Shown one piece after another: positions 8,340-30,598 of a DNA stretch of 64,000 bases; the stretch's first letter is position 1, and each line of letters starts with the position of its first letter. Below the pieces are notes generated by a model that saw only the letters and a program-made list of their open reading frames with translations, did not search any database and had not been told where the DNA came from. Position numbers and translations under genes: made by a program. Source of the DNA: Planctomycetota bacterium (lineage in GTDB: Bacteria; Planctomycetota; SZUA-567; H5-PLA8); assembly GCA_045863855.1 (NCBI GenBank), contig BTVV01000001.1, positions 32,001 through 96,000 on the forward strand, in the 5' to 3' direction.

Positions 8340-8600
8340 ATGCCTACCGTCCATACCTGGGGAGCGTCACGCCCGGCGCCGCCGCACGCGGAACCGGCGG
8401 CGTTCCTGCGTACGCCCGAAGTCGCCAGAAAGCTTGGAATATCCACGAAACGTGTACGCCTGCTGCTGCGTCAAGGCAAGCTCCCCGGTGTCCGCGTGGG
8501 CTCCGTCTGGTACGTGCCCCGCGAAGCCCTCGACGCCTTCCTCCGCCACCTCGTCGCCCAAGCGCAACACAACGTCATCAACCGCTTACAAGAGAAATGA
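8340..8600 (+). CDS. Excisionase-like helix-turn-helix DNA-binding protein
   Basis: FLRTPEVARKLGISTKRVRLLLRQGKLPGVRVGSVWYVP fits the HTH_17/Xis pattern. Confidence 0.85.
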   Translation: MPTVHTWGASRPAPPHAEPAAFLRTPEVARKLGISTKRVRLLLRQGKLPGVRVGSVWYVPREALDAFLRHLVAQAQHNVINRLQEK

Positions 8601-8674
8601 AACGCAGCGCCTCCCGCGCCCTTCCGCGTCATCGCATCCCGGTTCATGACCGTCTTGCTGGCAAAGGAAATCAA

Positions 8675-8977
8675 ATGATTCAGCTCCATACGAAAATCGA
8701 AAAGAAACTTTCCGGGGAGATGCTCCCGGAACTCGCAGCCGAATTTCGGCGCATCGCGAAGTGCTTGTGCAAAAAAGACCGCGCGATGCAGGAGGACTTA
8801 ATTCAGGAAATGGCGCTGGCGGCGTTATGCGTTCGCGGGGCGCACTCGTGGGGATACTACGTGCGTTTGGGGAGGTGGCGGGCGCGGGATTATCTGCGGC
8901 GCTTCGGGGCGCCGGCGGGCGGGACGTACGAGGACATCGAGCGGGCGCGGGATTTGGCGGCGGAACGGGAAGACTAG
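8675..8977 (+). CDS. Small sigma70 region-2-like protein (no region 4)
   Basis: QEDLIQEMALA...WRARDYLRR; RBS AAGGA before ATG 8675 (alternative start 8597). Confidence 0.6.
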   Translation: MIQLHTKIEKKLSGEMLPELAAEFRRIAKCLCKKDRAMQEDLIQEMALAALCVRGAHSWGYYVRLGRWRARDYLRRFGAPAGGTYEDIERARDLAAERED

Positions 8978-9092
8978 GCCGCGGCGGGCGCTTATCACGG
9001 AGCCAGACGCGCCGCGCTCTCCGCGCGGCCGGGCTTCGGCGGCGGCTACGCGGCAGCAACTCTATTTTTCGAGCATTCCGGGGGGAAATTCT

Positions 9093-9356
9093 GTGCTGGA
9101 GTCGGATCCTATCGCGGCGGCGGAGCGGCTGGTGCGCATCGAAGCTCAGCTCGATGCCCTGGTCTTGCTCACTTCGCGTTTGCACGGCGAGATGAAGGAG
9201 CAGCTCGATCTGGAGCGCCGGCGCTTCGAGGCGCTGGATGCGCGGGCGGGGGCTCTGGAGCGCGAGGCCGAGCGGACGCGGACGCACCTGGCTTGGATGA
9301 AGGGCGTCTGGGCGGCGGTGCAGGCTCCGATTCTGGCCTGGCTGGGCCTGAAATAG
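9093..9356 (+). CDS. Small coiled-coil protein with C-terminal hydrophobic helix (XhlA/holin-associated-like)
   Basis: ERLVRIEAQLD coiled coil then WMKGVWAAVQAPILAWLGLK. Confidence 0.55.
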   Translation: MLESDPIAAAERLVRIEAQLDALVLLTSRLHGEMKEQLDLERRRFEALDARAGALEREAERTRTHLAWMKGVWAAVQAPILAWLGLK

Positions 9357-9486
9357 TTTCGCCGCGCGCCGGATCTTCCCGCGGCCCGCGGAGCGATGTC
9401 ACGCCGGCGGCTGGAGCGCGGCTCTCTCTCTTTTCGAATGGGCGCACCCTGTTCACGGTGGATTCTTTTTTCATAGGAGGCCTTTC

Positions 9487-9699
9487 ATGCGTGCATTTCT
9501 GGGCAAATTGGGCGGGCGGAAGTTCATTCTCGCGGTCTTCGGCGCGATCGCGGTGGGCTTGAACGGACTCTTGGGACTCGACGAGGCGAGCATCCTGGCG
9601 CTGGGCGGGATCGTCGCGACGTACTTGATGGGGCAGGGGATCGCCGACGGACTTTCGGGCGGCTTCACGTCGACGACGGAGGATGCGAAGGAGAAGTAG
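9487..9699 (+). CDS. Putative holin (2 TM helices)
   Basis: AGGAGG RBS; GRKF, two hydrophobic helices, GQGIAD, charged tail. Confidence 0.65.
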   Translation: MRAFLGKLGGRKFILAVFGAIAVGLNGLLGLDEASILALGGIVATYLMGQGIADGLSGGFTSTTEDAKEK

Positions 9700-9767
9700 G
9701 CGATTGGAGTGCGGACTGAAGAACAGAGCGCGGCATTGAGGTTGCGCTTCGCGCGGCTTGTCCTGTT

Positions 9768-9862: not shown

Positions 9863-10471
9863 CTAACGGCGCGCGAGGCCGCTGAGTTCGGCGAGGTCTT
9901 CGACGGTGCGGTGAAGTTCGGCGACGAGCGGCGATTCGCCGTGGCTGCGGTAGGCATCGACGAGCGAACGGTAGTACCAAAGCGTGCCGTCGCGGCCGCC
10001 GTTGAAACGATCCCAAAGCATATCGCCGATCACGTGGTAATCGGCGCGGAGGTCGCGCGCGTTGGCGAGCTTGTCGCAGGCGCTGACGAGGCGGACGGAA
10101 GGCGAGGCGGTGCGGACGTGAGCGATGTAGCGTTCCTTGCGTTCGCGCCAGGGCGGCTTGGGTTCGGTGTCGGCGTCGGTGCAGCCGACGACGATGGCCG
10201 CGACGGCGGGCCCGTATTCGCGTTCGATCTCGGCGACACGCGGCTTGCCGCCGCAGTCTTCGACGATGTCGTGGAGAAGTCCGGCGATGACTTCGTCCTC
10301 GTTGCCGCCGTGTTCCATGACCAGCGCCGCGACGGTCATCAGGTGCGAGAGGTATGCGACTTCCTTGCCTTTGCGTTTGTGGTGGCCGTGACAGCGATGG
10401 GCGTCGAGGAAGGCGTTTTCGAAGCGTGGCGAGTAGTAGGGGAGGGGCGCTTTGTCGGGGTGGGGGCGCAT
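9863..10471 (-). CDS. Standalone RelA/SpoT-type HD hydrolase (small alarmone hydrolase/Mesh1-like)
   Basis: KRKGKEVAYLSH, LLHDIVED, DKLAN motifs of the HD_4 family. Confidence 0.85.
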   Translation of the reverse strand: MRPHPDKAPLPYYSPRFENAFLDAHRCHGHHKRKGKEVAYLSHLMTVAALVMEHGGNEDEVIAGLLHDIVEDCGGKPRVAEIEREYGPAVAAIVVGCTDADTEPKPPWRERKERYIAHVRTASPSVRLVSACDKLANARDLRADYHVIGDMLWDRFNGGRDGTLWYYRSLVDAYRSHGESPLVAELHRTVEDLAELSGLARR

Positions 10472-10680: not shown

Positions 10681-10977
10681 ATGTCTTGGGGACCGTTTTT
10701 AAGTCTGCTGCTGCGCGCTCTGCCGGACGTGCTGTTCTTGTGCCGGCGGCGGGCGGAGCGATCGGATCGGGAGGAGTTGCATGCAAGCGAACAGACGTTC
10801 CGCGTGGCGCTGGCTCGCGGGGATCTCGATACTGCTTCTGTGTTGCTGGAGCGGCGGTTGCGGGAAGCGCGCCGTCTACGTCACGGGCGGGCACCGCATC
10901 GTGAAGCTGCAGAAGGGGCAGCCGGCGCCGGAGCGGGGCGTGTGGATGAGCGAGGAGTACCTGGCGGAGATTCATGA
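10681..10977 (+). CDS. Putative inner-membrane spanin-like protein
   Basis: AAGGAAG RBS; hydrophobic N-terminus then helical segment; overlapped by a lipoprotein ORF. Confidence 0.45.
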   Translation: MSWGPFLSLLLRALPDVLFLCRRRAERSDREELHASEQTFRVALARGDLDTASVLLERRLREARRLRHGRAPHREAAEGAAGAGAGRVDERGVPGGDS

Positions 10978-11002
10978 AGCGCTGGGGCGGGAAGGGCAAT
11001 AA
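10781..11002 (+). CDS. Small lipoprotein, putative outer-membrane spanin (Rz1-like)
   Basis: GGAGGAG RBS; signal ending SGG-C; lies in the +1 frame overlapping the preceding ORF. Confidence 0.55.
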   Translation: MQANRRSAWRWLAGISILLLCCWSGGCGKRAVYVTGGHRIVKLQKGQPAPERGVWMSEEYLAEIHEALGREGQ

Positions 11003-11091
11003 GTAGAAGCAATGGACTCCATTCGGCGGGCGCAGGCGGGCGAACGTTCTGCATCGGCCCGATTTGCACTTTGAATCGAAAGGCTTTTCGC

Positions 11092-11358
11092 ATGGCCAAA
11101 ACGAAAGCGCTGCCGCTGGCGCCTTTGGCGCGGCATTCGACGGACGAATTGCTGGACGAGCTGGAGCGGCGGTCGCTGGGGTGCTTGGTGGTTTCGCTGC
11201 GGGTGGAGGAGCCGAACGCGGACGCGTGGCGTTACCGGATCAAGGGCTCGAACGTGCTGCTGGGGGCGATGAGCGCGGCGCTGACGGTGCGCATGCATTG
11301 CGTACTGACCGAGCGGGCGGAGTGGAACGACGATCCGTTCGCGGGGAGCGTGGTGTAG
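11092..11358 (+). CDS. Hypothetical phage-like protein
   Basis: STDELLDELERR; codon style matches the cluster. Confidence 0.6.
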   Translation: MAKTKALPLAPLARHSTDELLDELERRSLGCLVVSLRVEEPNADAWRYRIKGSNVLLGAMSAALTVRMHCVLTERAEWNDDPFAGSVV

Positions 11359-11696: not shown

Positions 11697-11996
11697 ATGG
11701 CACTCATGAAATGCAGAGGGTGTCAGAGCAAGTTTGCAGTTGGATTCATGCCAACCGCCACCTGCGGACTGCTCATCATTCCCGCATTCGTGATTACGCT
11801 GATGGCGTCCTTTGTCATTTGGCGTTTTGTGACTTGGTGGGCACTGGTTCTTTCCATTCCTGCCTTCTTTCTCGCTTTGCTCGGAGTCCACTTCATCCCG
11901 TGGACTTGCGAGTATTTGTTTACGTTCTGGCGTCGTTGCCCGCGATGCGGACAGCGCCGATGGTCGTATCCATTTACTGAAGGGTTTGGATTATGA
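11697..11996 (+). CDS. Cassette ORF 1: small membrane protein with CxxC motifs at both ends
   Basis: CRGC, two TM helices, CPRC; low GC; preceded by core site GTTAGGC at 11676. Confidence 0.65.
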   Translation: MALMKCRGCQSKFAVGFMPTATCGLLIIPAFVITLMASFVIWRFVTWWALVLSIPAFFLALLGVHFIPWTCEYLFTFWRRCPRCGQRRWSYPFTEGFGL

Positions 11997-12006
11997 GTCA
12001 CACGAT

Positions 12007-12106
12007 GGCTAATCATGCGCTGTAACGAACTTGGCATGACGTGGCGGCTTCCGGTATCTTCAAGCTCTGTCTCGGCGGGCCGGGCAGGTGAGCTTGGTCG
12101 TTCGGC
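12007..12106 (+). other. Degenerate integron attC site
   Basis: GGCTAAT-CATGCGCTG ... GTGAGCTTGGTC-GTTCGGC; right end is similar to the next attC. Confidence 0.55.
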
Positions 12107-12124
12107 GGCAGAAGGGGGTTTCCC

Positions 12125-12610
12125 GTGAGTCGAAGATTGTTTCTTATGCTGGCGATGGCTGCGAGCGTGACGTGTCTCCCTGCGGCCGCCGCTGATCCCG
12201 ATCCGGCTGTATCGCTGCTCCTGCACAAAGTTGCAGCCGAGCGTTTGGAGAAGGACATCCACTTCCGGTGCGAGGTGACTCTCGACAACGGCACCGGCCG
12301 CGACCTGGCCGTGCGGTCGAACTTCAGCTCGGTCTTCGACGGGCTGGAGGTCGTCGTGACCGACCCGAAGGGCAAGGTTCTGGTGCAGCGGGGGTACACG
12401 ATCCACCAGTCGCCGTTCGCCCCGCCGGGCCGTGTGTTCCCCCTCAAGCAGGGTCAGACGGCGGGTACGTTGGTGTTCCCCATCCACGATTTGCCGGCCG
12501 ATGCGCGGACGCTCAAGGTCCGCTTGGTGGGTACACTGCCGGGGAGCGGTTTCGAGCGGATTTTGTCGTCGGAGACGCTGGAGGTCACGGTCACGGCGCG
12601 TGACCAGTGA
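12125..12610 (+). CDS. Cassette ORF 2: secreted hypothetical protein
   Basis: Signal peptide (..LPAAAA-D), beta-rich mature part; bounded by GTTCGGCG and CGCCGAAC. Confidence 0.75.
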   Translation: MSRRLFLMLAMAASVTCLPAAAADPDPAVSLLLHKVAAERLEKDIHFRCEVTLDNGTGRDLAVRSNFSSVFDGLEVVVTDPKGKVLVQRGYTIHQSPFAPPGRVFPLKQGQTAGTLVFPIHDLPADARTLKVRLVGTLPGSGFERILSSETLEVTVTARDQ

Positions 12611-12623
12611 GGAGCAAAGGCAC

Positions 12624-12720
12624 GCCGAACCAAGCGCTGCAGCAGACGGCGGGGGCATGACGGCTTTCCAAGGGTTGAAGTCTCTGCAGCCGGTCCCGCT
12701 GCTGAACTCGATCGTTCGGC
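12624..12720 (+). other. Integron attC site
   Basis: GCCGAAC-CAAGCGCTGCAGCAGAC ... GCTGCTGAACTCGATC-GTTCGGC; 97 bp with complementary core ends and inner CAGCAG/CTGCTG pairing. Confidence 0.75.
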
Positions 12721-12735
12721 GGAAGTTGCGCGTAT

Positions 12736-13011
12736 ATGACAAACAAGAGACAGACTCCCTGGCGTCGTAGATTGACCAAAGTGCTCATCACCATCGGTCC
12801 GGTTACGGTGCTAGCAGGCATTGCTCTCCAGACTCCCGCTCTTACTGGATTCGCGTTGCTGCTTTGCTTTCTGGCGGTGGCCTTCGGCAAGTACACCGTT
12901 GTGTGTGCCAAGTGTGGGAAGAAGTATCATGCGATTGGCGTGGAGGTACTCTGCTGTTACAGCTGTGGCGCACCTTACTTTGAGGAGGCAGAGAAACATG
13001 ATGCTGTCTAA
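12736..13011 (+). CDS. Cassette ORF 3: small membrane protein with C-terminal zinc ribbon
   Basis: Two TM helices, CAKC..CYSC; stop TAA lies inside the inverse core GTCTAAC. Confidence 0.7.
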   Translation: MTNKRQTPWRRRLTKVLITIGPVTVLAGIALQTPALTGFALLLCFLAVAFGKYTVVCAKCGKKYHAIGVEVLCCYSCGAPYFEEAEKHDAV

Positions 13012-13069
13012 CCGGATCACTGCACACAAGGCTGGATAGCCGCCTCAGTTCCGCTTCGCGGTCCACGGC
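13006..13069 (+). other. Truncated attC (left half), cut at the boundary repeat
   Basis: GTCTAAC...TGCAC followed by attC-like sequence that runs directly into the 31 bp direct repeat. Confidence 0.45.
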
Positions 13070-13189
13070 TTTCACCACGGAGCGCACAGAGCACACGGAG
13101 CAGGGCAACGGCGTGCACTTTGGTTTGGAAGTCGTTACCTTTCCTGCGATTTGGCCCTTCTCGGCGTGCTCCGCGCCTCGGCGGCGAGA

Positions 13190-13990
13190 TCATCCTTCGA
13201 TCTCGAGTTCGGCGAGGACGGGGTAGTGGTCGCTGGGGTAGAGCGGGGGTTCGGCGTCGCGGACGATATGGCAGGTCTTGGCGCGGACGCGGGCGGTCCC
13301 ATCCTTATACAGAATCCAGTCGATGCGGCCGTGGTGGGGTTTGTTCAGGCGCGTGCCGGTAAACCCGTGGAAGGTGTAGATCTCGGGGCCGTCGGGTTGC
13401 CCGGTCTCGACATGCGCGTCGCGGTAACCGGCGGCGCGAAAGACTTCGTAGGGTTCTTCGCCGGGATCGGTGTTGAAGTCTCCGGTGATCAGCGTGAAGC
13501 CCGCGCCCGGGCTTAATTCGGCCAATTTTTTAACGATCAATTTCGCGCCTTCGATACGCGCCCATTGGCTCATGTGGTCCAGATGCGTATTGAGGTGCCA
13601 GCCTTCGAGGCCGCCGGCGAGCCGCAGCTTGAGCGCGAGGGCGGAGCGGATGCAGTTGGTGTCCCACGAGGCGCTGTGGCAATCGGGGGTTTCGCTGAGC
13701 CAGAAGGCTTTGGAGTCGAGGACTTCGACCGCGCCGGGTCGCCAGGCGGCGGAGGTGTAGCAGAAGGGATCGCGGTTGTTGTAATGCGGCCCGCGTTCGA
13801 TGCGGTGGGCGTTCCAGCCGCGCGCGTAGTGGTCGAGATTGCCGGTCTGGACTTCCTGAAAACCGACGAGATCGGGATCGAGTTTCTTGAGCGTGGCGAC
13901 GTTGAGCTCGGCTCGCGCGGGCCAGACGTTGGCTCCGTCGTTCACGAAACTTCCGCGCAAATTAAAGGTGACCACGCGCAGGGCAGGCAT
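13190..13990 (-). CDS. Endonuclease/exonuclease/phosphatase family protein
   Basis: TFNLR, GFQEV, NTHLDH, GDFN, RIDWI, SDHYPV. Confidence 0.93.
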   Translation of the reverse strand: MPALRVVTFNLRGSFVNDGANVWPARAELNVATLKKLDPDLVGFQEVQTGNLDHYARGWNAHRIERGPHYNNRDPFCYTSAAWRPGAVEVLDSKAFWLSETPDCHSASWDTNCIRSALALKLRLAGGLEGWHLNTHLDHMSQWARIEGAKLIVKKLAELSPGAGFTLITGDFNTDPGEEPYEVFRAAGYRDAHVETGQPDGPEIYTFHGFTGTRLNKPHHGRIDWILYKDGTARVRAKTCHIVRDAEPPLYPSDHYPVLAELEIEG

Positions 13991-14087
13991 GAGGGGAACT
14001 CCAGGTGTGCGGGGGAGCATAGCGGATCGATTTTGGATTTTCGATTTCCGATTTTGGAGAGGGGCGCCTGGCCAAGGGGGCGAATTC

Positions 14088-14279
14088 GTGACGCTCACGT
14101 TCTGCTCGATGCAGCGCAATCCGATACGCAAAGCAGCTCCGGCGTACTGCCGTTCGTGCAAGCGGACGGTGCAGGCGGTGCGGGCGTCGGCTCGGGATAC
14201 GCTGCGCTGCCGGGTGTGCGGAGGCGGAGTGATCGTCTCGCGGATGGTGGCGCGGAGTTTGGGGCTGCTGACCTTTTAG
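14088..14279 (+). CDS. Small basic zinc-ribbon protein
   Basis: CRSC-x17-CRVC; directly upstream of the terminase; start GTG 14088 or ATG 14109. Confidence 0.55.
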   Translation: MTLTFCSMQRNPIRKAAPAYCRSCKRTVQAVRASARDTLRCRVCGGGVIVSRMVARSLGLLTF

Positions 14280-19734: not shown

Positions 19735-20139
19735 ATGGCTTTGACGGCGGCTCAGGTGACGCAAGTTTTCGAAGTGCTGGGGGTTCCCGAGCATTCGAGC
19801 GGATCGGTGGTGCTGGAATTGACGGGTCTTTTCGGTCCGCAATTCGAGAGTTACGACGTGAGCGCGGTGCGGAATCTGCTGGCGGCGCGGCTGGCGGGGT
19901 TGAGCGCGAGCCAGGAGGCGCGGGCGGCGGAGCTGCTGGCGCGGTGGAGCGCGATCGGCGCGACGAGTCCGCTGACGGTGGCGAAGGAGGGTTTGGCGGC
20001 GGGCACGTTGGCGGATCATCCGGCGGAGCGCGAGCATCTGCGGCGGGCGCTGGCGAATACGATCGGCTTCGCGGTGGCGGGGGGCGGGTTCGCGGCGGAG
20101 GCGGCGGTGAGGGCGGGGAGAGGGAGGGTTGTGCGGTAG
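19735..20139 (+). CDS. Putative head-tail adaptor
   Basis: Helical 134 aa protein just after the capsid; function from position only. Confidence 0.55.
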   Translation: MALTAAQVTQVFEVLGVPEHSSGSVVLELTGLFGPQFESYDVSAVRNLLAARLAGLSASQEARAAELLARWSAIGATSPLTVAKEGLAAGTLADHPAEREHLRRALANTIGFAVAGGGFAAEAAVRAGRGRVVR

Positions 20140-20286
20140 GCGGGTATGCAATGGGGTACTTATTTTAGAGTGAAATGAAAAGTCAAAGCCAACATTCAAA
20201 TGCCAGGATGCGATGGCTCGAGGGACAGGCAGCGCGGGGGCGCAAAGCAGGCATTTCGGTTCCAATTCTTCGGAGCATTCAAACGC

Positions 20287-20652
20287 ATGACGGTTTGGGA
20301 AACGATTCGAAGCGCGCGGGCGGAGGCGGCGGCGGCGGTTTTCGGCGCGGTGGGGGTGCGGGTGGATCTGATCGGCGAGGGGGGCGCGGCCGAGGACCTG
20401 GCGGCGTACGTGGAGCAGGGCGGTGCGGCGTTCGAGGGGAGCCTGGCTCGGCACGGCGTCGAAGCGGAACGGGTGGTGCATCTGCCGCGGCAAAGCGGAT
20501 TCGACGGGAGCGTGCGGCCGGGGGATGTGGTGGTGCTTCCGGCGGGCGGTGCGACGAAGTACGTGATCCGCGCCGTCGATTGCGACGCTCACGAGGCCGT
20601 CTTCCGCCTGCGGGTGACGCGTGCGGCGGCGCCGGTGGGGCTGGGGGGGTGA
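20287..20652 (+). CDS. Putative head-tail joining (stopper) protein
   Basis: Beta-rich with RPGDVVVL..YVIRAVD; 121 aa; position. Confidence 0.6.
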   Translation: MTVWETIRSARAEAAAAVFGAVGVRVDLIGEGGAAEDLAAYVEQGGAAFEGSLARHGVEAERVVHLPRQSGFDGSVRPGDVVVLPAGGATKYVIRAVDCDAHEAVFRLRVTRAAAPVGLGG

Positions 20653-20782: not shown

Positions 20783-21397
20783 ATGGCGGCGATGCCGGCG
20801 GCGAGTCTGATCGGGAAGACGCGGGCGCGGTTGAAGGCGCTGGCGGAAGGCGTGAGCGGAGGCGGGCTGACGCTGGCGGCGGAGCGGGTGGTGCTGGGTT
20901 ACGCGCGGACGCTGGAGAGCGGCGGGTTCTTCGCGAACCTGCTGGCCGAGGGGCCGTGCCTGGCGATCGGTTCGGCGACGCTCGACTACGGCGCTCAGGC
21001 GGCATACGGTCCCGCCGAGGTCCGCGCCATCCTTTACGTGGGATTCGAGCGCGGCGCTGCGGAGGATTTCACGGCCGTGGACGATTTGCTGGAGGCGCTG
21101 CGCGAGGCCTGGAACGCTCCGGAGTCGTTCGGGAGCGGCGAGGCGGCTCCGATCCGGATCGGCTGGGACGCTTGGAAGACGGAGACGAAGAGCGAGCCGG
21201 GCGTGGTGGCGATTCCGCTGCGGGTTCAATTTCCCGATCCGCCGCTGGGCGAAACGTTCGAAGCCGAGGCGCGCCTGGGTGCGGCGCTGGAGCGGGAAAC
21301 GCCGACGATCTTGCGGACGTGCTGGCGCTATTTCGTGCATCGTTCGCGGTTCGAAAAACTGGCGCGGTTCGGAAGGAGCTGGTTGGAGGGAAGTTAG
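20783..21397 (+). CDS. Putative tail terminator/neck protein
   Basis: GGAGG RBS; VDDLLEALREAW helix; position. Confidence 0.5.
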   Translation: MAAMPAASLIGKTRARLKALAEGVSGGGLTLAAERVVLGYARTLESGGFFANLLAEGPCLAIGSATLDYGAQAAYGPAEVRAILYVGFERGAAEDFTAVDDLLEALREAWNAPESFGSGEAAPIRIGWDAWKTETKSEPGVVAIPLRVQFPDPPLGETFEAEARLGAALERETPTILRTCWRYFVHRSRFEKLARFGRSWLEGS

Positions 21398-21528: not shown

Positions 21529-21921
21529 ATGGCGCAAACGGGTGCGGGATTTCGGATCGAGTCGGCGACGCACGGCGAGTTGACGCTGGGGCGGGCGCTG
21601 GAGGCGTGGTTGCGCGAGGAGGCGGAGTGGGTGCCGCTGGAGGCGGGGGCGTTCGCCGGCGTACCGGGTTTGGCGGCGGTGCCACGCGGGTACGAAGCGG
21701 TGGTGGTGGTGACGGACCTGGCCGCCGAACCGGCGCTGGGAGCGAAGGCGACGCTGGAGTTGACGCTGAAGGCCGCGACGGGCGAGCGCGTGATTCTGAC
21801 GCTTCCGCACATGAAGCGCGGACCGTGCGAATGGAATCTGCGCCGCGCTCCGCACGCTCGCGCATTGGCCTTTCGCTACGAGGGCGCGCTGCTGCCGGCG
21901 CCGCTGGCGGTGAGCGTGTGA
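21529..21921 (+). CDS. Hypothetical beta-rich virion protein (tube-like fragment?)
   Basis: Cluster-like codon use; ATLELTLK..VILTLP strands. Confidence 0.5.
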   Translation: MAQTGAGFRIESATHGELTLGRALEAWLREEAEWVPLEAGAFAGVPGLAAVPRGYEAVVVVTDLAAEPALGAKATLELTLKAATGERVILTLPHMKRGPCEWNLRRAPHARALAFRYEGALLPAPLAVSV

Positions 21922-21982: not shown

Positions 21983-22270
21983 ATGGCGGCTAACGAAGCG
22001 GTGCGGACGCGTGGATTCGACGCGGTGCTGTATACGGATCGCGGAAGAGCGCTGGCGTTGGCGCGGGTGCGTCGCGCTCCGTTGATCAAGCGGCGCGGGT
22101 TGCGCTTCGGATTGACCTTCCGATTTCGCTGGATCCACGAGGGGCATGCGGTGACGGCGGCGTTTCCGTTCGAGGCGGCATCGAGTGCGTACGCGCGTGC
22201 GGAGGAATTCGAGTGGGAGCGGTTGGGGGAAGGGGCTTGGGGCGGGAGACGAGCAAAAAGTAAAACGTAA
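21983..22270 (+). CDS. Hypothetical protein
   Basis: Co-oriented ORF in the cluster. Confidence 0.45.
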   Translation: MAANEAVRTRGFDAVLYTDRGRALALARVRRAPLIKRRGLRFGLTFRFRWIHEGHAVTAAFPFEAASSAYARAEEFEWERLGEGAWGGRRAKSKT

Positions 22271-22361
22271 ATCGTAAAGGAAAGGGCGGACTACGGATTA
22301 CCGCCCGCTCATCGTTCCCTGCGAAGCGGATGCTGGCGCATCCTTATATAGGAGACTCGGG

Positions 22362-22634
22362 GTGAGGATCGAGGAGGCGGAGGAGCGGGCGCGGCAGGTG
22401 CTGGCGGCGCTGGATCTGGGCGTGGCGTTCGCGGCGGAGCCGGGCCGGGTGCGGAAGGTTCGGGCGGCATCGGCGTCGAGTGCGGAAGCGCCGGGGGACT
22501 TGGCGGCCGCGGCCGAACCGAGTTCACCGCGGCCGATCGTTCGTGCGAGCGGCGGCGAGACGGAACGCGCTCGGCAGGAGGAGTGGTTGTACCGGCGGCA
22601 TCGACTGGCGCGGACGGGGTGGAACCGGGATTGA
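22362..22634 (+). CDS. Hypothetical protein
   Basis: GGAG RBS plus GTG; co-oriented. Confidence 0.5.
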   Translation: MRIEEAEERARQVLAALDLGVAFAAEPGRVRKVRAASASSAEAPGDLAAAAEPSSPRPIVRASGGETERARQEEWLYRRHRLARTGWNRD

Positions 22635-22904: not shown

Positions 22905-23324
22905 ATGTCCGATTGGATCGTGGGGAGTATCGCGTTCGCCGATCCGGCGGGGTTGGCCGATGCGGCGGGCTTGGTGCTGGGCAAGTACTGGCTGGGCGAC
23001 GTGCGCGTCGGAGCGGGCGAGTACGCGGCGGCGGCGTACGCGTTTCCGGGCGTGGACGGCGTGGGCTTGAAGCGTTTGGGTTTTCGCGGGCGGCGGGTGG
23101 AGGGCGAGGTGGCGTACGTGGCGGAGTCGCCGGCCGCATTGCGTACGGCTCTGGCGGTCGACCGCCAGGCGTTGGAGGACCAGACCTTCGCCACGACGCC
23201 GCCGGACGGCGCGGAGCTGGCGGCGTGCACGCTGGAGGCGTTTCCGGACGGCGCGGTGCTGGCCGACGCGGGCGGCGCGTTCGTGCTGCGGACGCGGTTG
23301 GCGGTGCGGCAGGTCAGATTGTAG
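22905..23324 (+). CDS. Putative distal-tail-like protein
   Basis: FPGVDGVGLKRLGFRGRRVEGE resembles Dit/DNA-circularisation N-terminal patterns; position. Confidence 0.5.
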   Translation: MSDWIVGSIAFADPAGLADAAGLVLGKYWLGDVRVGAGEYAAAAYAFPGVDGVGLKRLGFRGRRVEGEVAYVAESPAALRTALAVDRQALEDQTFATTPPDGAELAACTLEAFPDGAVLADAGGAFVLRTRLAVRQVRL

Positions 23325-23431: not shown

Positions 23432-25174
23432 ATGTCGGCTTCTCATGTGCCCGCGTCGGAAGACGCGGCGTTCGATGCGTTCGCGGGATTGACGTTCGAC
23501 GATCCGCTGCTGTACGCAACGCCCGATGCGCGGCGGATCGACGCGAAGTATTTCTTGAAGCCGGTGCAGGACGAATTGCTGCGCTTGATCGAGCTGGATT
23601 TGGAGGGTTCGGCGGCGTTGCCGGTGCGCAACGAGTCGGGCGGAACGCTGGCGGCGGGGGCGCTGGTTTGCGTGACGGGGCGCGACGGCGGAACGGGGCG
23701 CTGGCTGGTCGAAGGCGCGGACGCGGGCGATCCGGATCGGCCGGCGCAGTTCGTGCTCGACGCGGACTTAAACGATGCTTCGAACGGGGTGGCGTACGCG
23801 CACCGGACGGTGGACGGCTTGGACACGTCGCCGGCGGCGCCGAACGATCCGGTGTACCTCGCAACGCTCGCGGGCGGCTTCACGTTCGTTGCGCCGTCGA
23901 GCCCGGACCGCGTGCAGGAAGTCGGGCGCGTGGCGGCGGCCGATGCGAACGGATCGATTTGGTTCAGCGTGGGCGGCTTGCATGCGGGCGCGGTCGGCGG
24001 AAGCGCGGGGAGCGGGACGGCGGGCGCGCTGGCGAAATGGACGAGTTCGGCGGAGCTGGGCGACAGCATCGTGAGCGAGGACGGATCGGCGGCGACGGTG
24101 GCCGGCGATCTGATCGTCGACGGAGGGCATCTGGAGATCGGGGCGGGCGATGCGACGTTGAGCGCGGGCGACGTGCGGCTCGAAGCGGGCGCGTTGCGTT
24201 TGCATGCGGGCAGCTTCGTGGGAGCGGAGAACGGCGCGGCGGATACGGCGGGTGCGGATCTTCCGCTGTACGCCGGGGCGGGGGGCGCGCATGCGTCGGC
24301 GCATCCGCGCGGGGGCGACATCGTGGCGAAGCCCGGCGCGGCGGGCGCGGGCGGGACGGGGCGCGACGGACGTTTCGCGGTCGAAGCTCCCGGCGGCGGG
24401 AGCGCTCAGTTGCGCGCGTCGCACACCGGCGCCGACGCGCGGCTGGAGACGAGCGCGGGCGATCTGATCGTCGAGCCGGCCGGCGGGCAGTTGATCGTTC
24501 GTCAAGCGGGCGGCGTGGCGGGGACCGACGACGTACAGCTGTTTCACGACGGTTCGGACGGGTACGTCACGTCGGAGAGCGGCGATTTGCGGCTGAGCGT
24601 GCCGAACGGAAACCTGAAGCTGCGCGTGCGGACGAGCCAGGTGGTCTGCTACGTGCCGCTGGTGCCGGACGGCGCGAACACGCGTACGCTGGGCGGAAGT
24701 TCGAACGAGTGGCTGGCGTTGTACGCGGGCGAGGATGCGAACAGCGGATTCTTCGCGGGTTTGGACCAGAATATCCGCGGCTATTACGACGAGGCGGGCG
24801 CCGACGTTTTCAAATGGACCGGCGGGAGCGGCGCGGCCGACTGCGGCGATATGGAGTGGGAGACGACGTACACGCTGGGCGGGAACGCGGGCGACGGGTT
24901 CGCTTCCGCTTTGCGGCTGGACCCGGGCTACACGGCGGGCAGCGCGTACACGGTGACGCGGCATAACTATCTGGATCTGCAGAATCCGAGCACGGGCGGG
25001 AGCGCGGCGCTGACCGATGCGTGCGCGATGCGCTTCGACGCGGCGGCGGGAACGCATAAGGCGCTGGCGGGAAGTTCGACGAAGGCGACGCCGGGCGCGG
25101 TGGATGCGTGGTTGAAGGTGAATATCAACGGGACGGTGCATTACATGCCGGCGTATGCGAGCGTGACGAGTTGA
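23432..25174 (+). CDS. Putative fibre/spike protein
   Basis: Gly/Ala-rich beta repeats, GSGTAGALAKWT..LGDS, C-terminal WLKVNINGTVHYMPAY. Confidence 0.7.
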   Translation: MSASHVPASEDAAFDAFAGLTFDDPLLYATPDARRIDAKYFLKPVQDELLRLIELDLEGSAALPVRNESGGTLAAGALVCVTGRDGGTGRWLVEGADAGDPDRPAQFVLDADLNDASNGVAYAHRTVDGLDTSPAAPNDPVYLATLAGGFTFVAPSSPDRVQEVGRVAAADANGSIWFSVGGLHAGAVGGSAGSGTAGALAKWTSSAELGDSIVSEDGSAATVAGDLIVDGGHLEIGAGDATLSAGDVRLEAGALRLHAGSFVGAENGAADTAGADLPLYAGAGGAHASAHPRGGDIVAKPGAAGAGGTGRDGRFAVEAPGGGSAQLRASHTGADARLETSAGDLIVEPAGGQLIVRQAGGVAGTDDVQLFHDGSDGYVTSESGDLRLSVPNGNLKLRVRTSQVVCYVPLVPDGANTRTLGGSSNEWLALYAGEDANSGFFAGLDQNIRGYYDEAGADVFKWTGGSGAADCGDMEWETTYTLGGNAGDGFASALRLDPGYTAGSAYTVTRHNYLDLQNPSTGGSAALTDACAMRFDAAAGTHKALAGSSTKATPGAVDAWLKVNINGTVHYMPAYASVTS

Positions 25175-25272: not shown

Positions 25273-25488
25273 ATGGCGGAGGAACGGTTATCCGGCGCGG
25301 ACGCGGAGCGCTTGCGGGCGGGTCATGCGGCGCTGGTGCTGGCGCGGCGCGAGCTGGCCTGGGCGGAGGAGCGCATGCGGCATTTACAGGAGTTTTTTGG
25401 ACTTAAATACGGCTTACGGTCGGGAGATGGGATTCGCGCGGACGGGCGGATCGAGCGGCGATGGGAACAGGAGCAGAGACCTTCGTGA
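25273..25488 (+). CDS. Small protein after the fibre gene (chaperone-like)
   Basis: 71 aa, helical; TGATG overlap with the next gene. Confidence 0.5.
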   Translation: MAEERLSGADAERLRAGHAALVLARRELAWAEERMRHLQEFFGLKYGLRSGDGIRADGRIERRWEQEQRPS

Positions 25489-27035
25489 TGCCAGGCATGC
25501 GAACGTCGTCGTTTCCGGGGCGGGTGGAAGACGCGTTACTGGATCTGGAGCTGTCGGCTCCCGCGAGCCTGGGCGCGGCGCGGGTGTTGCTGCGGCCGGC
25601 GCCGGGGTACGGCGGGCGGTGGTACGGCTTGTACGCGAACGCCCGGCTGGCGGCGGTGGTGTACGCGGCCGAGGGAGGCGCGGCGGAGGCGCTGCTCGCG
25701 TGGCCCGCGGAAGCGGAGGAACTGTGCGTGCACGCGGAAGACTTGGGCGGCTGGCCGGCCGGGTACGATCCGGAATTTACGGCTCGCGCGGCGGATGAAA
25801 TGAGCGCACCGGGATTGCGCCTGGAGTGGGCGGCGCAGCCGGAGGCGCTCTGGGGAAGCGAAGACGGCGGCCAGTTGAGCGGATGGTTAATTTCGGGGGC
25901 GAAACGGTTCAGCAATTCGGATCCGCTGGCGGGCTGGCCGACCCGGGCGAGCTGGGCGGTGGCGCTGGACGACGAGGACGGCGTTCGGCGCGTGCGGCTG
26001 TATGCGAGCGGGCGACTGGTGGCGGAAGGTTCTCGCGCAGGGGACGGCGCGGTGGAACTGGAGGCGCGGAACGAATCGGGATTGAGCGGGAGCGTGACGG
26101 TGGCGTACGAGGGCGGGGTGGCGCTGGGCGAGGCGAAGCTGATCGCGCGCTGGCCGGCGGCGTACGCGCTTCACTTCGCGCCGGGCGGATTGAGCTTTCC
26201 GCGCGCGGCGGAAGCGGAGGTATTCGACGACGGGCGGAGCGGGCGGTATCGGTTCGCGTCGGGGAAGCTGGCGGCGGGCATTTATACCGTCGCGGTGCGG
26301 CCTATTTCGGACACGGGCGCGGCGGCCGGTGAGCCGGAGACGCGGACGGTGGAGGTGTACGGTCCGCCGCAGGCGCCGGGTGCGGCGGCCTATGCGAGCG
26401 GGGATGCGGCGTCGACGACGGTGGCGTGGGTGCCTTCGGCGACGGCCGGCGCGACGTATCGCGTGTATGCGGGGGAGATCGGCGGGGCGCTCCGGATGTT
26501 GGAACCGCAAAGCGTAGCGGGGCCTCCGTACGAGGCGGCGCTACCGGCGGTGTCCGGATATCCGGGCCTGCGGCGAGTGCTGGTGCGCGCGGTGAAGGAC
26601 GGCGTGGAGGAATCGAACGGGCAGGTCTTGACGCTGGAGTATGCGGCCGATGGCCGCGTGGTAGCGAGCCGGCCGAACGCGGCCCGGATCGCCGAGGTGG
26701 CGGTGGAAGAGGGCATGACCGTGCGCGTGCGGGCGGTGTATCGAGCGAGCGGGGAACGCGCGGCGCCGGAGACGGCGGAGTTGTATCTGGCGGAAGGCGA
26801 GGCGGCCTTCGATTTCGAAGCTCCGGCGGCGAGCGAGCCTTGGGATGCGGAGCTGGCCGGGGTGCGCGGCGCGGAGTTGGCGGCGGTGGCTTCGGGCGCG
26901 GGATGGTATCGCGTGGCGGTGCGGGCAAGGTCGGCGGACGGGACGCCGGATGCCGGCGAGGCGTGGGAGCGTGTGTATGTATCGGCGAGCGAGCCGGCGG
27001 GAGTAGGGGAGTGGGAGGCTTGGGCGGGACGGTAG
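25488..27035 (+). CDS. Putative tail protein with fibronectin-III-like repeats
   Basis: YTVAVRP, PPQAP..TVAWVPSATAGATYRVY, YRVAVRA segments. Confidence 0.6.
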   Translation: MPGMRTSSFPGRVEDALLDLELSAPASLGAARVLLRPAPGYGGRWYGLYANARLAAVVYAAEGGAAEALLAWPAEAEELCVHAEDLGGWPAGYDPEFTARAADEMSAPGLRLEWAAQPEALWGSEDGGQLSGWLISGAKRFSNSDPLAGWPTRASWAVALDDEDGVRRVRLYASGRLVAEGSRAGDGAVELEARNESGLSGSVTVAYEGGVALGEAKLIARWPAAYALHFAPGGLSFPRAAEAEVFDDGRSGRYRFASGKLAAGIYTVAVRPISDTGAAAGEPETRTVEVYGPPQAPGAAAYASGDAASTTVAWVPSATAGATYRVYAGEIGGALRMLEPQSVAGPPYEAALPAVSGYPGLRRVLVRAVKDGVEESNGQVLTLEYAADGRVVASRPNAARIAEVAVEEGMTVRVRAVYRASGERAAPETAELYLAEGEAAFDFEAPAASEPWDAELAGVRGAELAAVASGAGWYRVAVRARSADGTPDAGEAWERVYVSASEPAGVGEWEAWAGR

Positions 27036-27122: not shown

Positions 27123-27536
27123 TTAGGGCTCAATTTTGAGATCGCGGAGTCGCCAGCGTCCGTTTTTGGCGATCTGATACTGGATGGTGCAGTTGTAGAC
27201 GTGGCCTTCGATGGCTCGGCCGGCGCCGCCGAATAATGCATCTACGTCATGCACGGCAAAATGTTTCACGTCGCCCACCTTAAAGGGAGCCTTCTGTCCG
27301 TCGCCGAGTTCGACGAGCTGGGCGCTGACGCAGTAGCGCGGATCGGAATCGGTGGCGGTGAGGACTTTATCGGTGGAGCCGACGGGTTCGACGGCGAGGA
27401 GTTTGGCTTTGAAGCGGACGGCGTTTTCTTCGAGCAGCGGAAAGCCGGGGGCGCCTTGGTAGAGGTGCGTGGGTCGCTTTTGGCTGCAACCGGCCAGAAG
27501 CGCGAGCGGCAGCAGGATGGCGGCGATGCGTCGCAT
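27123..27536 (-). CDS. Hypothetical lipoprotein
   Basis: Lipobox LLAG-C after a short signal; GGAG RBS. Confidence 0.8.
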   Translation of the reverse strand: MRRIAAILLPLALLAGCSQKRPTHLYQGAPGFPLLEENAVRFKAKLLAVEPVGSTDKVLTATDSDPRYCVSAQLVELGDGQKAPFKVGDVKHFAVHDVDALFGGAGRAIEGHVYNCTIQYQIAKNGRWRLRDLKIEP

Positions 27537-27620
27537 CTTCGAACTCTCCGCGTGAAGCGCAGACTATACCTCAGGCGCCCTTAAAGCGGAGCGCGTTTTC
27601 GGGCACGCAGGAGGCGGACG

Positions 27621-29741
27621 ATGCCGGCGACGGCGGTGGTGGCGCTTGCGGAGCAGATCGACCGGCGCGCGGCGGTGTACGGCGTGCGTTTCGATCCGGG
27701 CGGTCGCGAGAGCGCCTTACGATTTGCGTTCGCGACGCGGGTGGTATTGCAAGCCGGAGCGCGGCCGGGGTACGCGGTGGCGGGGATTCCGCTGGGCGCT
27801 TGGGACGAGCGCGCGCCGGCGGTGGCGGGCGTGCGGGGCGGGCCGCTGTCGGGGTTGCGGCTGGGCACGCGGGCGCAGGCGTACGTGTACGCGGAGGGGC
27901 GAGCTTTCGCGCTGCTGACGGGAAGCGTGGTGAACGTGCGGCAGGATCTGGGCGCGGACGAGGCGGAGGTGACGATACTGGACGACCGCTGGCTGCTGGA
28001 GGGCGTGCCGGTGGCGGGGCAATTCAGGTACGATCCGCGCTCGGAATCGGCTGCGTACACGGAGCGCGGTCCGTGCCGATTCAATCCGGACGGGCAACCG
28101 AATTGCATCGATGCGCCGGGTGGGCCGCTATTCGCGCCTTGGCCGAATTTCGGCCGGGCCGACGGTTCGCCGGAGCCGTGGCCGGGGCAGGCGAAGAAGG
28201 AGGCTCGCGCGTGGCGGCACGCGGATATCGTGGCCTACTTTATTCGCACCCTGGCCACGGCGGAATTCGCGGGGCTGACGGCGGCGTATCCGTATTTTAC
28301 GCGCGTGGACGGGGATAAATTAAGGATACCGGAGACGCTGGGCGCGGCGCTTTTGGGCGATGCGGAGCACGCGGCGGAGGACGCTCGCGGGCGCGCGGGC
28401 TTCGGCGCGGCGGATCGCGAGGGATCGTCGTCGGCGCAGCGGGCGCCGGACTTGGCGCTGGAGGGCTGGGACTTGCTTTCGGCGCTGGACCGCGTGGTAT
28501 CGAGCGCGGGCGCGTACGCGCTGGATTGCGCGCCGGAGGATGCGGAGGGCATGCGGAGCGTGCTGCGGATCGTGCCGGCGCGGTACGTGGACGGCGCTCG
28601 GGACGGTTTGCGGATCGTCCGGCCGTCGGGCGGGACGCTGGCGACGCATGCGCGGGGGCCGAGCGCGAGCGGGGGCGCATTGGAGGAGGACGCGGGCGGG
28701 GTCTTCACGTGCGTGGCGGCGGCGGGGAGCGCGGCGGCGCTGGAGCGGCGGCTGGCGTTCGATCCGGAGGCGCCGGGCGGCGGCTTGCAGGCGGGCTGGA
28801 GCGCGGCGGAGGAAGACGCGTTCAAGGCGTATATCGCGGAGCATCCGGAGCATCCGAATTCGGCGGAAGCGTTTTTGGAGGCGGCGTGGCGCTGGCCGCG
28901 GGTCTTCGCGGCGTATCAGATCGATCCGAATTTCGACCTGCATGCGGGTACGAAATACGCGGGCGTGCCGCGCGCGACGGCGCATCCGCCGCTGCTTCCG
29001 TATCTCTTGAGCGGCGCTCACGAGGAGTCGCCCGGCGGCGCGAAGGGGCGGGCATTTCCGCTGCCGATCGCGGTGGAATTACGCAACGATGAGGAGGCAT
29101 GGCGGGCGCGGACGCAGTTGGACGGCTTGGAGACGGACGCGGACGGGACGCTGTGGCTGACGGGGCTGCGCGAGGCGGGCTTGCACGAAGCCGAGGCCGG
29201 AACATTCAAAGGCACTCCAAGCGAACCGGACGAACTGGCTCCGCGCGCGCTGCGGGTGACGCTCGCGGTGCAACTCGACAAGCGCGCGGTATCCGCGGCG
29301 GGCTTGGCGGGATCGGGGAGCGGAGACGTGGCGCTGGCCGATCCGAACGCGGAGGCGGCGGCGCTGGAGCCGGGTTTGGTTCGGACATACTGGGCCGACG
29401 CGGACGGCGCGTACGTGGAGCATTTGCGCGCGGGGAGCTGGCCGGTTCCGCAAAGCGTAGAGGGAGCGGAAGCGGCGGAAGACCGGGCGGCGGAAGGCTC
29501 GGAGCTGCGCGGGTGCGCCGAGCGCTTGCGCGCTCACGCCCAACGGCGGCTCGCGGAGCTGGCTCGTCCGCGCAAGACGGGGCGGCTGGTCTTTCCGGGC
29601 GCGGTACTGTGGTCGCCGGGGGCGGCGGTGGAGGCGTTGGCGAACGCGGGGAGCGAGCGCGGGGCGTATCCGGTGCGCGGGGTGGTGGCGAAGGTGATTC
29701 ATGAGTACGGGAGAGGGGAGACGGTGGTGGAGTTGGTGTAG
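27621..29741 (+). CDS. Putative baseplate hub/tail-tip protein
   Basis: AGGAGG RBS; 706 aa; ends VVAKVIHEY..ETVVEL as in hub-type proteins. Confidence 0.55.
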   Translation: MPATAVVALAEQIDRRAAVYGVRFDPGGRESALRFAFATRVVLQAGARPGYAVAGIPLGAWDERAPAVAGVRGGPLSGLRLGTRAQAYVYAEGRAFALLTGSVVNVRQDLGADEAEVTILDDRWLLEGVPVAGQFRYDPRSESAAYTERGPCRFNPDGQPNCIDAPGGPLFAPWPNFGRADGSPEPWPGQAKKEARAWRHADIVAYFIRTLATAEFAGLTAAYPYFTRVDGDKLRIPETLGAALLGDAEHAAEDARGRAGFGAADREGSSSAQRAPDLALEGWDLLSALDRVVSSAGAYALDCAPEDAEGMRSVLRIVPARYVDGARDGLRIVRPSGGTLATHARGPSASGGALEEDAGGVFTCVAAAGSAAALERRLAFDPEAPGGGLQAGWSAAEEDAFKAYIAEHPEHPNSAEAFLEAAWRWPRVFAAYQIDPNFDLHAGTKYAGVPRATAHPPLLPYLLSGAHEESPGGAKGRAFPLPIAVELRNDEEAWRARTQLDGLETDADGTLWLTGLREAGLHEAEAGTFKGTPSEPDELAPRALRVTLAVQLDKRAVSAAGLAGSGSGDVALADPNAEAAALEPGLVRTYWADADGAYVEHLRAGSWPVPQSVEGAEAAEDRAAEGSELRGCAERLRAHAQRRLAELARPRKTGRLVFPGAVLWSPGAAVEALANAGSERGAYPVRGVVAKVIHEYGRGETVVELV

Positions 29742-29858
29742 GAGGGAGTTGGGCGAACAAGGTAAAGAGTAAGGGGCGTGAGGTGAGCGGTGAGCGGTGA
29801 ACGGGAAGGGCAAACGGCAAACGGAAATTTCGCCTCAAAAATATACTTCAAATTCAAG

Positions 29859-29930
29859 GGCACCCCCCATCCTGCCTTCCCCCACAGGGGGGGAAGGTTT
29901 CATCACGGCGCTGCGCGCCTTGAAGGGCAA
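29859..29930. repeat. REP-like family B copy 1
   Basis: GGCACCCCCCATCCTGCCTTCCCCCACAGGGGGGGAAGGTTTCATCACGGCGCTGCGCGCCTTGAAGGG; also at 33835 and 35089. Confidence 0.9.
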
Positions 29931-30019
29931 GGGCTGCTTTGCGCTACGCGCCTCAAAGGTCAAGCGCGGCTTTGCGCTACGCGCTCTCTATGGATTCATT
30001 CCGTTCTGGAGGCTCTTTC

Positions 30020-30598
30020 GTGCACGCTCCGCTGGAGGATCTGACGACGCTGCGGAAACTCGCGCTGGGCGAGCGAACTCGAGCGCTGGCGGCGGGGCCG
30101 GCGGGGCGGACGCGGGTGCGGCCGGCGGGGGCGATGGGACAGCCGTACGACGTGCTGGCGATCGACTTCTACGACGGCGAAGCGCTGAGCGTCCAGCCGG
30201 TCCCGGGCGATACGGCATTCGCGTACGGGGCGGCGGTGGCGATCGATCCGGCTTGGGCGCTGGCTCCGTACTCGATCTTGTGGTGCGAAAGCCCGCCGCT
30301 GGAACTGGACGACGCGGCTTTGGGGGGATCGTTCTTGAGCTTCGTGGAGCTGACGCTGGATGACGCGAGCGTGGCGGCGTTGAATCCGTTGCGCGTGAAC
30401 GCCGAGGGCGGCGCGGTCTACGCGGAGCCGGGCTTTTTGAATCCGGTGGAGACGATCGGGCCGGCGCGGCGCATCGTGAACGCTCGGCGCGTCGTCCAGG
30501 CCGACGGCCCGGGGACGGCGACGGCGACGGTTTTTCCGGGGCTGGCGTTTATGGTTTTCTTTCGTTCGCGGGAGGGGCGGTTTCGGGAAGCGCCGTGA
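30020..30598 (+). CDS. Hypothetical protein, last gene of the cluster
   Basis: GGAGG plus GTG; cluster-like codon use; followed by a terminator. Confidence 0.6.
   Translation: MHAPLEDLTTLRKLALGERTRALAAGPAGRTRVRPAGAMGQPYDVLAIDFYDGEALSVQPVPGDTAFAYGAAVAIDPAWALAPYSILWCESPPLELDDAALGGSFLSFVELTLDDASVAALNPLRVNAEGGAVYAEPGFLNPVETIGPARRIVNARRVVQADGPGTATATVFPGLAFMVFFRSREGRFREAP

Follow-up and report, generated by a model that had tools for sequence, protein, structure and literature searches.

The window, a stretch of 64,000 nucleotides from an uncultured Planctomycetota bacterium (genome G000), carries a phage-derived cluster at 8325-30598 with terminase, portal, scaffold, capsid, neck, tail-tube and tail-tip genes, and the question raised by this locus is whether the cluster is a prophage, the remains of one, or an element owned by its host, such as a gene transfer agent (GTA). 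According to the parts of the review literature cited here, homology alone does not distinguish GTAs from prophage remnants (PMC11841831). The first-pass annotation had proposed a domesticated phage or GTA-like system, and the cluster was compared with the other genomes of the same uncultured family, here G-numbered; the unpublished genome G017 enters the genome tallies only and is the basis of no claim.

Organization of the cluster

Coordinates refer to the plus strand unless the minus strand is stated. The left neighbour is a tRNA-Leu(TAG) gene (7940..8024, minus strand) with its 3' end facing away from the element, and the same neighbour is present in G001 and G002. Wherever the 5' end is visible the cluster opens with a gene for an excisionase-family (HTH_17) DNA-binding protein (8325..8600; TIGR01764 over the cut-off), which is likely a regulator, followed by a short protein resembling sigma-70 region 2 (8597..8977). 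The window copy of the latter gave no direct family match in profile searches, and is linked by profile to a prophage protein matching PF04542; it is probably an activator. The next products are a conserved coiled-coil protein with a hydrophobic C-terminus (9093..9356), which may be a neighbour of the lysis module, a conserved holin-like small membrane protein (9487..9699; weak match to the holin family phrog_9987, E 0.023), a conserved small protein with a lipoprotein-like sequence (10781..11002), and a conserved 89-aa protein of no known family that is also found in related prophages (11089..11358). A small Cys-rich, zinc-ribbon-like ORF (14088..14279) abuts terL in G000, G001 and G002, and lies near terL in G004.

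The annotated terL, portal, scaffold and capsid genes were confirmed. TerL (14283-15662) matches phrog_2 (E 2e-42) and retains its Walker A/B and nuclease motifs, the portal (15836-17284) matches phrog_145 (E 2e-37), the head scaffold (17312-17812) phrog_206 (E 4e-12), and the Gp13-like major capsid protein of 343 aa (17936-18967) PF20036 (E 4e-33). They are followed by a viral neck protein (19735..20139), whose nearest Atlas clusters are 76-83% viral with a weak adaptor lead and which is likely the head-tail adaptor. A candidate head-closure protein (20200..20652) has a homologue in G007 matching PF05354 (E 8e-4), which suggests a stopper, and a third, tail-terminator-like neck protein (20783..21397) is assigned by position.

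The tail-like ORFs of the first reading also found support. The 130-aa product of 21529..21921 gave no result in the Atlas, and its AlphaFold model (pLDDT 85) has the tail-tube fold, with the top match (TM 0.66) to the tube of the siphophage vB_DshS-R4C and further matches to virion chains of the Rhodobacter agent RcGTA. Two small ORFs (21983..22634) occupy the place of the chaperone and tape-measure candidates in related prophages, and no tape-measure homologue was found in them. A distal-tail-like protein (22905..23324) is assigned by position and has homologues among prophage genes. The putative tail fibre or receptor-binding protein (23432..25174) has a prophage homologue matching tail-fibre PHROGs, the tail-tip protein (25461..27035) weakly matches central tail fibre J (phrog_31, E 0.006), and the probable baseplate hub or tail-tip protein (27621..29741) resembles gp44/VgrG-type hubs over its N-terminal ~130 aa in a low-confidence model (pLDDT 49). 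The final gene (29939..30598) has no assigned family and is conserved in G001 and G002. The fold matches of tube and hub to contractile injection systems reflect shared ancestry; capsid, portal and TerL are present, and no sheath match was obtained, at variance with a contractile injection system or tailocin.

The four opposite-strand genes described earlier are all present on the minus strand as passengers: an HD-domain hydrolase (9863..10471) and an EEP nuclease/phosphatase (13190..14161), both with Pfam matches, and a membrane-type (19272..19691) and a lipoprotein-type ORF (27123..27536) with weak or no family match. All are common to G001 and G002, and the EEP gene also to G004. Three small cassette-like ORFs (11711..13075) were not found in G001 or G002. 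The attC array reported there reduces to one canonical attC-like site (12624-12720), the other two being degenerate as judged by eye; its hairpin is no better than shuffled sequences (z -0.9), and no integron integrase scored over the cut-off in the whole genome.

Mobility and composition

No integrase family matched on the window contig, against 18 matches elsewhere in the genome. An att-like repeat was not found, the longest word common to the flanks being 17 bp within ispH and an SDR gene, and no repressor, replication gene, endolysin or small terminase was recognised in the cluster with Pfam and PHROG. The window locus thus lacks the integrase or transposase with att sites, the repressor and the replication genes of an intact temperate prophage. 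The earlier statement to this effect stands for the locus, with the qualification that the first two cluster genes encode an excisionase-type HTH protein and a sigma-2-like protein. A mobile prophage was rejected because there is no att repeat and the depth of the element resembles that of its flanks on long contigs in four DNA runs from three studies, each possibly the source of the genome. In run X1 the element had a depth of 9.9-12.6 and the flanks 10.5-13.9, three short pieces at 5-6 being left out. No excision joints with a side of at least 30 bases were listed in the four runs, a search in which contigs cannot prove absence.

Host-like composition holds for GC content (0.667 against 0.661) and fails for tetranucleotides, in which the element lies farther out than 99% of 136 windows, probably because its structural proteins are rich in Ala and Gly.

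Distribution in the family

The cluster occurs with its gene order kept, and in one copy per carrier genome, in 10 of the 16 other family genomes, so that the absence from relatives that would have spoken against domestication was not borne out. Together with the window the carriers represent six genera, and their orthologous capsids are 76-96% identical. No capsid orthologue was found in the remaining six genomes (74-93% complete); one of these, G012, keeps four 5' cluster genes near a contig end. The proposed site between ispH/tRNA-Leu and dnaE is kept within the genus and not across the family, both flanks being present in one and the tRNA-Leu in two of the ten relatives, and the flanks vary from genus to genus. 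In G006 a tyrosine integrase lies ~1.8 kb upstream of the cluster, past a nitrilase. In G001 portal and scaffold are missing and the capsid is without its N-terminal ~137 residues, through either a loss or an assembly error. These irregularities, together with the lack of a recognised endolysin and small terminase, count against a GTA.

Vertical descent and selection

The element tree was compared with a host tree of RpoB and DnaE (IQ-TREE) for 11 genomes, and all eight splits agree, giving the co-divergence of terminase and capsid with the host that had been proposed as a check. For single genes the splits matching the host were 7/8 for capsid, 6/7 for portal, 7/8 for TerL, 3/6 for scaffold and 4/7 for the adaptor. 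None of 100,000 label shuffles attained seven splits, a weak null because kin have a shared history. The capsid (tree length 1.26) is conserved at about the level of RpoB (0.92) across the six genera, with DnaE at 2.16 and TerL at 5.78.

Nei-Gojobori dN/dS was obtained for 19 element genes between G000 and its nearest species G002, and every value lay within 0.09-0.34, far below 1; dS was 0.08-0.49 in these genes and 0.14-0.17 in host genes. In genus g10 the values for TerL, portal and capsid were 0.07-0.22. The ratios between G000 and G001 were higher (0.19-0.77 against 0.17-0.20 for host genes), probably because saturation at high GC inflates them; selection may also have been relaxed in G001.

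An old defective prophage in neutral decay would be consistent with the G001 deletion, the loss of the tail in one clade and the absence from several genomes, but reading frames that are open throughout the window, close-pair dN/dS of 0.07-0.34 and a capsid as conserved as RpoB over six genera make decay extremely improbable. A helper-dependent satellite or cryptic prophage still moving among hosts of the family has in its favour the varying flanks, the excisionase-family gene, the integrase near the G006 copy, and more distant capsids (52-63% identity) that often lie on contigs of 9-10.5 kb, a group for which viral and metagenome scans gave no loci. Complete tree congruence, host-like synonymous divergence, a single copy per genome, passenger genes of the host shared by several species and the lack of an att repeat speak against such movement, and we regard it as very unlikely. 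Domestication, that is vertical inheritance of a cluster kept under selection, is well supported by its presence in relatives, co-divergence, low dN/dS and a locus free of att sites and integrase, and we consider it highly probable; the long-resident, selected element of the first reading is upheld.

Related prophages of the same hosts

The nearest relatives of the element are prophages in the same planctomycete family, where they are common; IMG/VR yielded no close relative, and the best match among phage records was ~25%. A CI-like repressor and many early genes are present in prophages of the same lineage, together with candidates for the small terminase and for a tape measure of 305-385 aa; homologues of these were not found in any of the element loci fetched. 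As this ancestral lineage persists in the same genomes, the losses that accompanied domestication can be read gene by gene. The label 'Mu-like' for these prophages was rejected, the large early gene having no Pfam, PHROG, NCBIfam or PDB match. In 13 of 15 structural pairs the element protein has less carbon per side chain than its homologue in a prophage of the same genome, the capsid being no cheaper in two of three pairs, a point against the GTA reading; carbon-cheap structural proteins are described as a pattern of alphaproteobacterial GTAs in the cited part of PMC7360931.

A head-only form in the sister clade

Seven of the 11 carriers, which form a sister clade, have a head-only version of the cluster, an observation that goes beyond the earlier reading. 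It measures ~11-14 kb against 22 kb in the window, and retains TerL with its ATPase and nuclease motifs, portal, scaffold, capsid and adaptor, as well as the third neck protein in five of the seven. The gene for the 89-aa protein is the final cluster gene 5' of terL in five of these carriers, with a passenger ORF in between in G006. The stopper-like gene and a second particle locus were not found in them; tube or hub genes were found only within unrelated prophages, and in five of the seven no homologue was found anywhere. A gene for a ~510-aa Ig-domain protein in several head-only clusters (homologue G000:C5) was considered as a particle part and rejected as a member of a multi-copy host family with up to nine matches per genome. 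The sister clade appears to have shed tube and tip once and kept the head-only form. That seven carriers have no tail for delivering DNA is a point against a GTA.

The dispensable tail may point to a domesticated function other than transfer. Heads or capsid would then defend against related temperate phages, for example by altering the size of phage capsids, by titrating phage tails or as decoys; alternatively, heads filled with DNA would have PBSX-like roles in killing or biofilms. The abundance of related prophages and a capsid under much tighter constraint than TerL (tree lengths of 1.26 and 5.78) are consistent with this, but the portal and the TerL motifs are kept even in head-only carriers, purifying selection acts on the tail-tip genes in the genus of the window, and co-resident prophages have capsids of only 24-35% identity; such a role is unlikely, though the least so of the alternatives. 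The retained head, packaging and neck genes would also suit a carrier, chiefly in the head-only clade, whose DNA-filled heads become infectious only on the tails of related prophages. Prophages whose neck and tail genes are homologous do occur in G003 and G010, and tail-less heads of cf-PICIs use foreign tails according to the cited part of a preprint (bioRxiv 10.1101/2025.02.11.637232). The missing stopper-like gene and the five carriers in which no tube or hub homologue was found argue against borrowing, as does the lack of an integrase or replication module, in whose absence the element would not move itself, and we find it improbable.

The function best explaining the cluster as a whole is in our view that of a GTA, a reading of the gene sequences that we hold to be somewhat favoured. 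As its head-and-tail genes are inherited like ordinary genes and kept under purifying selection, the product is likely an undescribed GTA-like particle. The HTH and sigma-2-like proteins would activate the cluster in a subset of cells, and a head would be assembled from capsid, scaffold and portal. TerL, without the ancestral small subunit, might fill it by the headful with chromosomal DNA and no sequence preference. A very short tube with a hub-fibre tip would be attached via adaptor, stopper and terminator, giving small short-tailed particles with pieces of host DNA as cargo; holin-like and lipoprotein genes may aid lysis of the producer, and the DNA would be taken up by kin. A single domestication in the family ancestor, yielding a GTA that then lost its tail stepwise, is a more tentative and rather doubtful extension. 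The series would run from a prophage with tape measure, over the tube and tip without tape measure of the window and a remnant with stopper and tube fused (locus L163), to head and neck only, leaving the head-only form as a host-owned DNA carrier with borrowed tails or tail-less delivery.

Comparison with known systems

GTAs are defined as viriforms by six features (Kogay 2022, PMC9662315), and those seen here are particle proteins derived from Caudoviricetes, full endogenisation (neither an integrase on the contig nor an att site or replication gene) and descent congruent with the host. The other three features of the definition are a cargo of mostly random host DNA, for which the lack of a small-terminase homologue gives indirect support here, a head that cannot accommodate its own locus, and delivery of the cargo to other cells. 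Few GTAs are known outside Alphaproteobacteria, and literature searches listed no described GTA in Planctomycetota, the phylum in which these comparative features occur here.

With RcGTA and the other Rhodogtaviriformidae, including the Caulobacter GTA, the element shares several traits: the head and tail genes form a compact cluster devoid of integrase and replication genes and co-diversify vertically with the host, the proteins are carbon-cheap, and the ~130-aa tube has the same fold. Unlike RcGTA it has a Gp13-like capsid and a phrog_145 portal, with no sign of homology to RcGTA families, has no tape-measure or small-terminase homologue, and has HTH and sigma-2-like genes of its own. Its host is a planctomycete, and among profile matches there was none to a GTA-specific Pfam, PHROG or NCBIfam family; it is thus placed outside the RcGTA family.

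PBSX of Bacillus subtilis is likewise a fixed, inherited phage-like element for which packaging of host DNA is possible, but it is a tailocin as described in the cited sections of PMC12946183; the element has no recognised sheath gene, and it is the tail that was lost. The cf-PICIs resemble the head-only clade in having head, portal, terminase and neck genes and no tail; in the cited part of the preprint (bioRxiv 10.1101/2025.02.11.637232) they possess an integrase, replication genes and a small terminase, package their own genomes and cross species, whereas the element is without such genes and follows the host tree. From the tail-less gene set of a cf-PICI the window differs by its tube and tip, and the seven relatives nearly match it except for the stopper-like gene.

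FpGTA of Faecalibacterium, with which the element is compared by description only, offers another likeness. In the sections of PMC12946183 cited here it is a packaging-and-head operon of ~10 kb outside Alphaproteobacteria, with tail genes absent in some strains and particles without a visible tail. It differs in its TerS candidate and demonstrated DNA packaging, and in a second operon for baseplate, fibre, holin and endolysin, the like of which was not found in the head-only carriers. As one clade has the tailed form and its sister the tailless one, the Planctomycetota element makes it testable what use a conserved DNA-packaging phage head has without a tail.

Gene content and boundaries of the cluster

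The window is located on contig C1 of a 6.9 Mb genome, 94% complete, from an uncultured Planctomycetota family. The cluster (approximately 8325–30598) is bounded by tRNA-Leu(TAG) and a series of host genes ending with dnaE, and its first gene is an excisionase-family HTH gene, with a sigma-2-like gene also at this end, neither of them named in the first-pass annotation. The TerL, portal, scaffold and capsid genes named there were all found, the capsid being Gp13-like. The 130 aa product of the gene at 21529 has a confident tail tube fold (pLDDT 85), with its best structural match, TM 0.66, to the tube of a siphophage. For the 706 aa product of the gene at 27621 the model is poor, and over its first ~130 residues it resembles baseplate hubs. 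Neck, distal-tail and fibre proteins are assigned by homologues and position. As had been claimed, there is no integrase on contig C1 and no att-like repeat was found at the window locus. The proposed attC array is reduced to one good attC site, and the composition is host-like in GC but atypical in tetranucleotide use.

An intergenic repeat family is present at 9746–9812, 21444–21512, 22670–22846 and 33251–33319, with ~27 blast matches in the genome. A five-copy repeat of 54–60 bp is located at 56260–56487, where a minus-strand ORF (56240–56632) encodes a Cys-rich peptide repeat. A Fic-family gene in lower-GC DNA precedes ispH (5204–6406), and a different Fic gene (33%) occupies the same place in the congener G002.

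Distribution and inheritance

Capsid orthologues with 76–96% identity are present in 10 of the 16 other genomes of the family. Two of the remaining genomes have distant (34%) capsid copies only and four have none. One of these four, G012, retains the first four cluster genes near a contig end. Searches beyond the family gave weak matches only, in 2 of the 44 relatives from the order and class and in 2 of the 391 genomes sampled across the phylum. Wherever the carrier contigs are long enough the order is HTH, sigma-like, coiled coil, holin-like, lipoprotein, 89-aa protein, terL, portal, scaffold, capsid and adaptor, and it recurs in the ten longer of 20 examined metagenome loci as far as these extend, some of these loci belonging to the same records as the genomes. 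The flanks are host genes that differ from genus to genus; within the genus the tRNA-Leu neighbour is shared. A single carrier, G006, has an integrase ~1.8 kb upstream of the cluster. Arrays of tRNA genes, ~30 in G001 (C2, ~1300700–1308100) and ~27 in G002 (C1, ~2571000–2575500), lie within ~15 kb of the cluster, on opposite sides in these two congeners.

The tree of five element proteins from the 11 carriers has the topology of the RpoB+DnaE tree, with 8 of 8 splits shared; none of 100,000 label shuffles, a weak null, reached 7, and the single trees of capsid, portal and TerL each miss one split only. Identity to other genera is 75–84% for the capsid and 39–52% for TerL, with 77–82% for RpoB and 63–69% for DnaE. 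Against the nearest species dN/dS is 0.09–0.34 in all 19 element genes tested, tail genes included, and synonymous distances are of the same order as in host genes. In the sequence available for each carrier the motifs of TerL are intact; G015 shows one Walker B change, and in G006 the gene is split into two frames. The packaging motor looks to be in working order. Portal and scaffold are missing from G001 together with the beginning of the capsid gene, through either a recent loss or a misassembly; repeats similar to the intergenic family of the window are located at this deletion junction. The element is a phage virion module whose own genes do not allow integration or replication; it has been inherited since the family ancestor, is maintained by selection and was very probably domesticated by the host family.

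Probable loss of the tail in a sister clade

In seven carriers forming a coherent sister clade (G003, G006, G010, G011, G014, G015 and G016) the last gene of the cluster encodes the adaptor or the third neck protein, the G011 contig terminating just past the adaptor. A tube profile search gave no match in five of them and prophage copies only in two. Hub searches agree in finding no hub outside prophages, and a search for tip genes, covering five of these carriers, points the same way. The head-only genomes are 79–95% complete, and the absence should therefore be read as "not found". Loss of the tail is the simplest reading, since the related prophages have a full tail. Head-only forms might borrow tails in the manner of cf-PICIs, a third option for the function of these forms that is weakened by the missing stopper. 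The main rival to a gene transfer agent (GTA) is a role in defence or as a decoy, for which two points speak: no other part is as constrained as the capsid, and the tail can be dispensed with.

A fused stopper-tube gene is found in one metagenome locus, L163. A KTSC-domain gene is conserved beside the neck genes of head-only carriers, near the adaptor (loci L041, L043, L044 and L046), and a response-regulator receiver gene is located downstream of the cluster in G003, G010 and locus L164. In G005 (contig C87, L186:9804–11747) tRNA-Leu(TAG) adjoins the orthologue of the Ig-domain gene that occurs within head-only clusters; no further gene of the cluster is present, and this may be the ancestral site after it was emptied.

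Related prophages and other clusters

G001, G002 and G004 also carry a prophage with homologous portal, capsid (32–35%), neck, tube and tip genes, accompanied in G001 by a CI-like repressor and dozens of early genes. All three prophages have a small-terminase candidate and a tape-measure candidate (305–385 aa), named by position and sequence character, and no homologue of either was found in the fetched element loci. Carbon use is lower in the element structural proteins than in those of the prophage in 13 of 15 same-genome pairs, the capsid being the exception. Between the fibres of the window (23432–25174) and the G002 prophage (L060:8261–10330) identity is 52%, above the 33–38% of other shared genes, which suggests that element and prophage have exchanged this gene. 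A separate tailed prophage in the genome of the window (C67:1–32507) codes for a candidate small terminase, a tape-measure-like protein and a homologue of holin. Capsids P0045–P0056, 52–63% identical, branch basal to the element, 8 of 11 on contigs of 8.8–10.5 kb, and may represent small mobile ancestors.

Other compact head-tail clusters (capsid 34%) are present in G007 (L061:11580–L062:8236) and G005 (L065:11056–L066:11599), both without the orthologous cluster, and no tape-measure candidate was seen in either. Because that of G007 is flanked by host genes, lacks an integrase and encodes Ala/Gly-rich proteins, it may be a second domestication; that of G005 has a weak integrase match upstream. 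In a different family of the class, a compact terL-portal-capsid-neck-hub cluster occupies the same place among host genes in two species, G026 (L067:6728–20712) and G024 (L069/L070), and may have been domesticated independently.

Presumptive function and comparison with known systems

On balance we lean towards the element functioning as a GTA. Its proteins would build small heads and, as a consequence of the loss of the ancestral small terminase, these would be filled with host DNA; the window clade would add a very short tail, and the particles would be released through lysis. Phage SPP1 packages by headful. The small terminase of RcGTA has no specific DNA-binding domain, according to the accessible text of PMC7947584, which for planctomycetes mentions a prophage only. 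Three of the six features that define GTAs in the accessible part of PMC9662315 are found in the element and the other three call for experiments, making it a strong candidate and not a proven member. No described planctomycete GTA appeared among the open-access papers listed. The element is neither of the RcGTA type nor a cf-PICI; in carbon use its structural proteins are like those of alphaproteobacterial GTAs, for which a carbon-saving bias is known (PMC7360931, accessible part). To the known cases this one adds a tailed form, a tailless form and their prophage relatives within one family.
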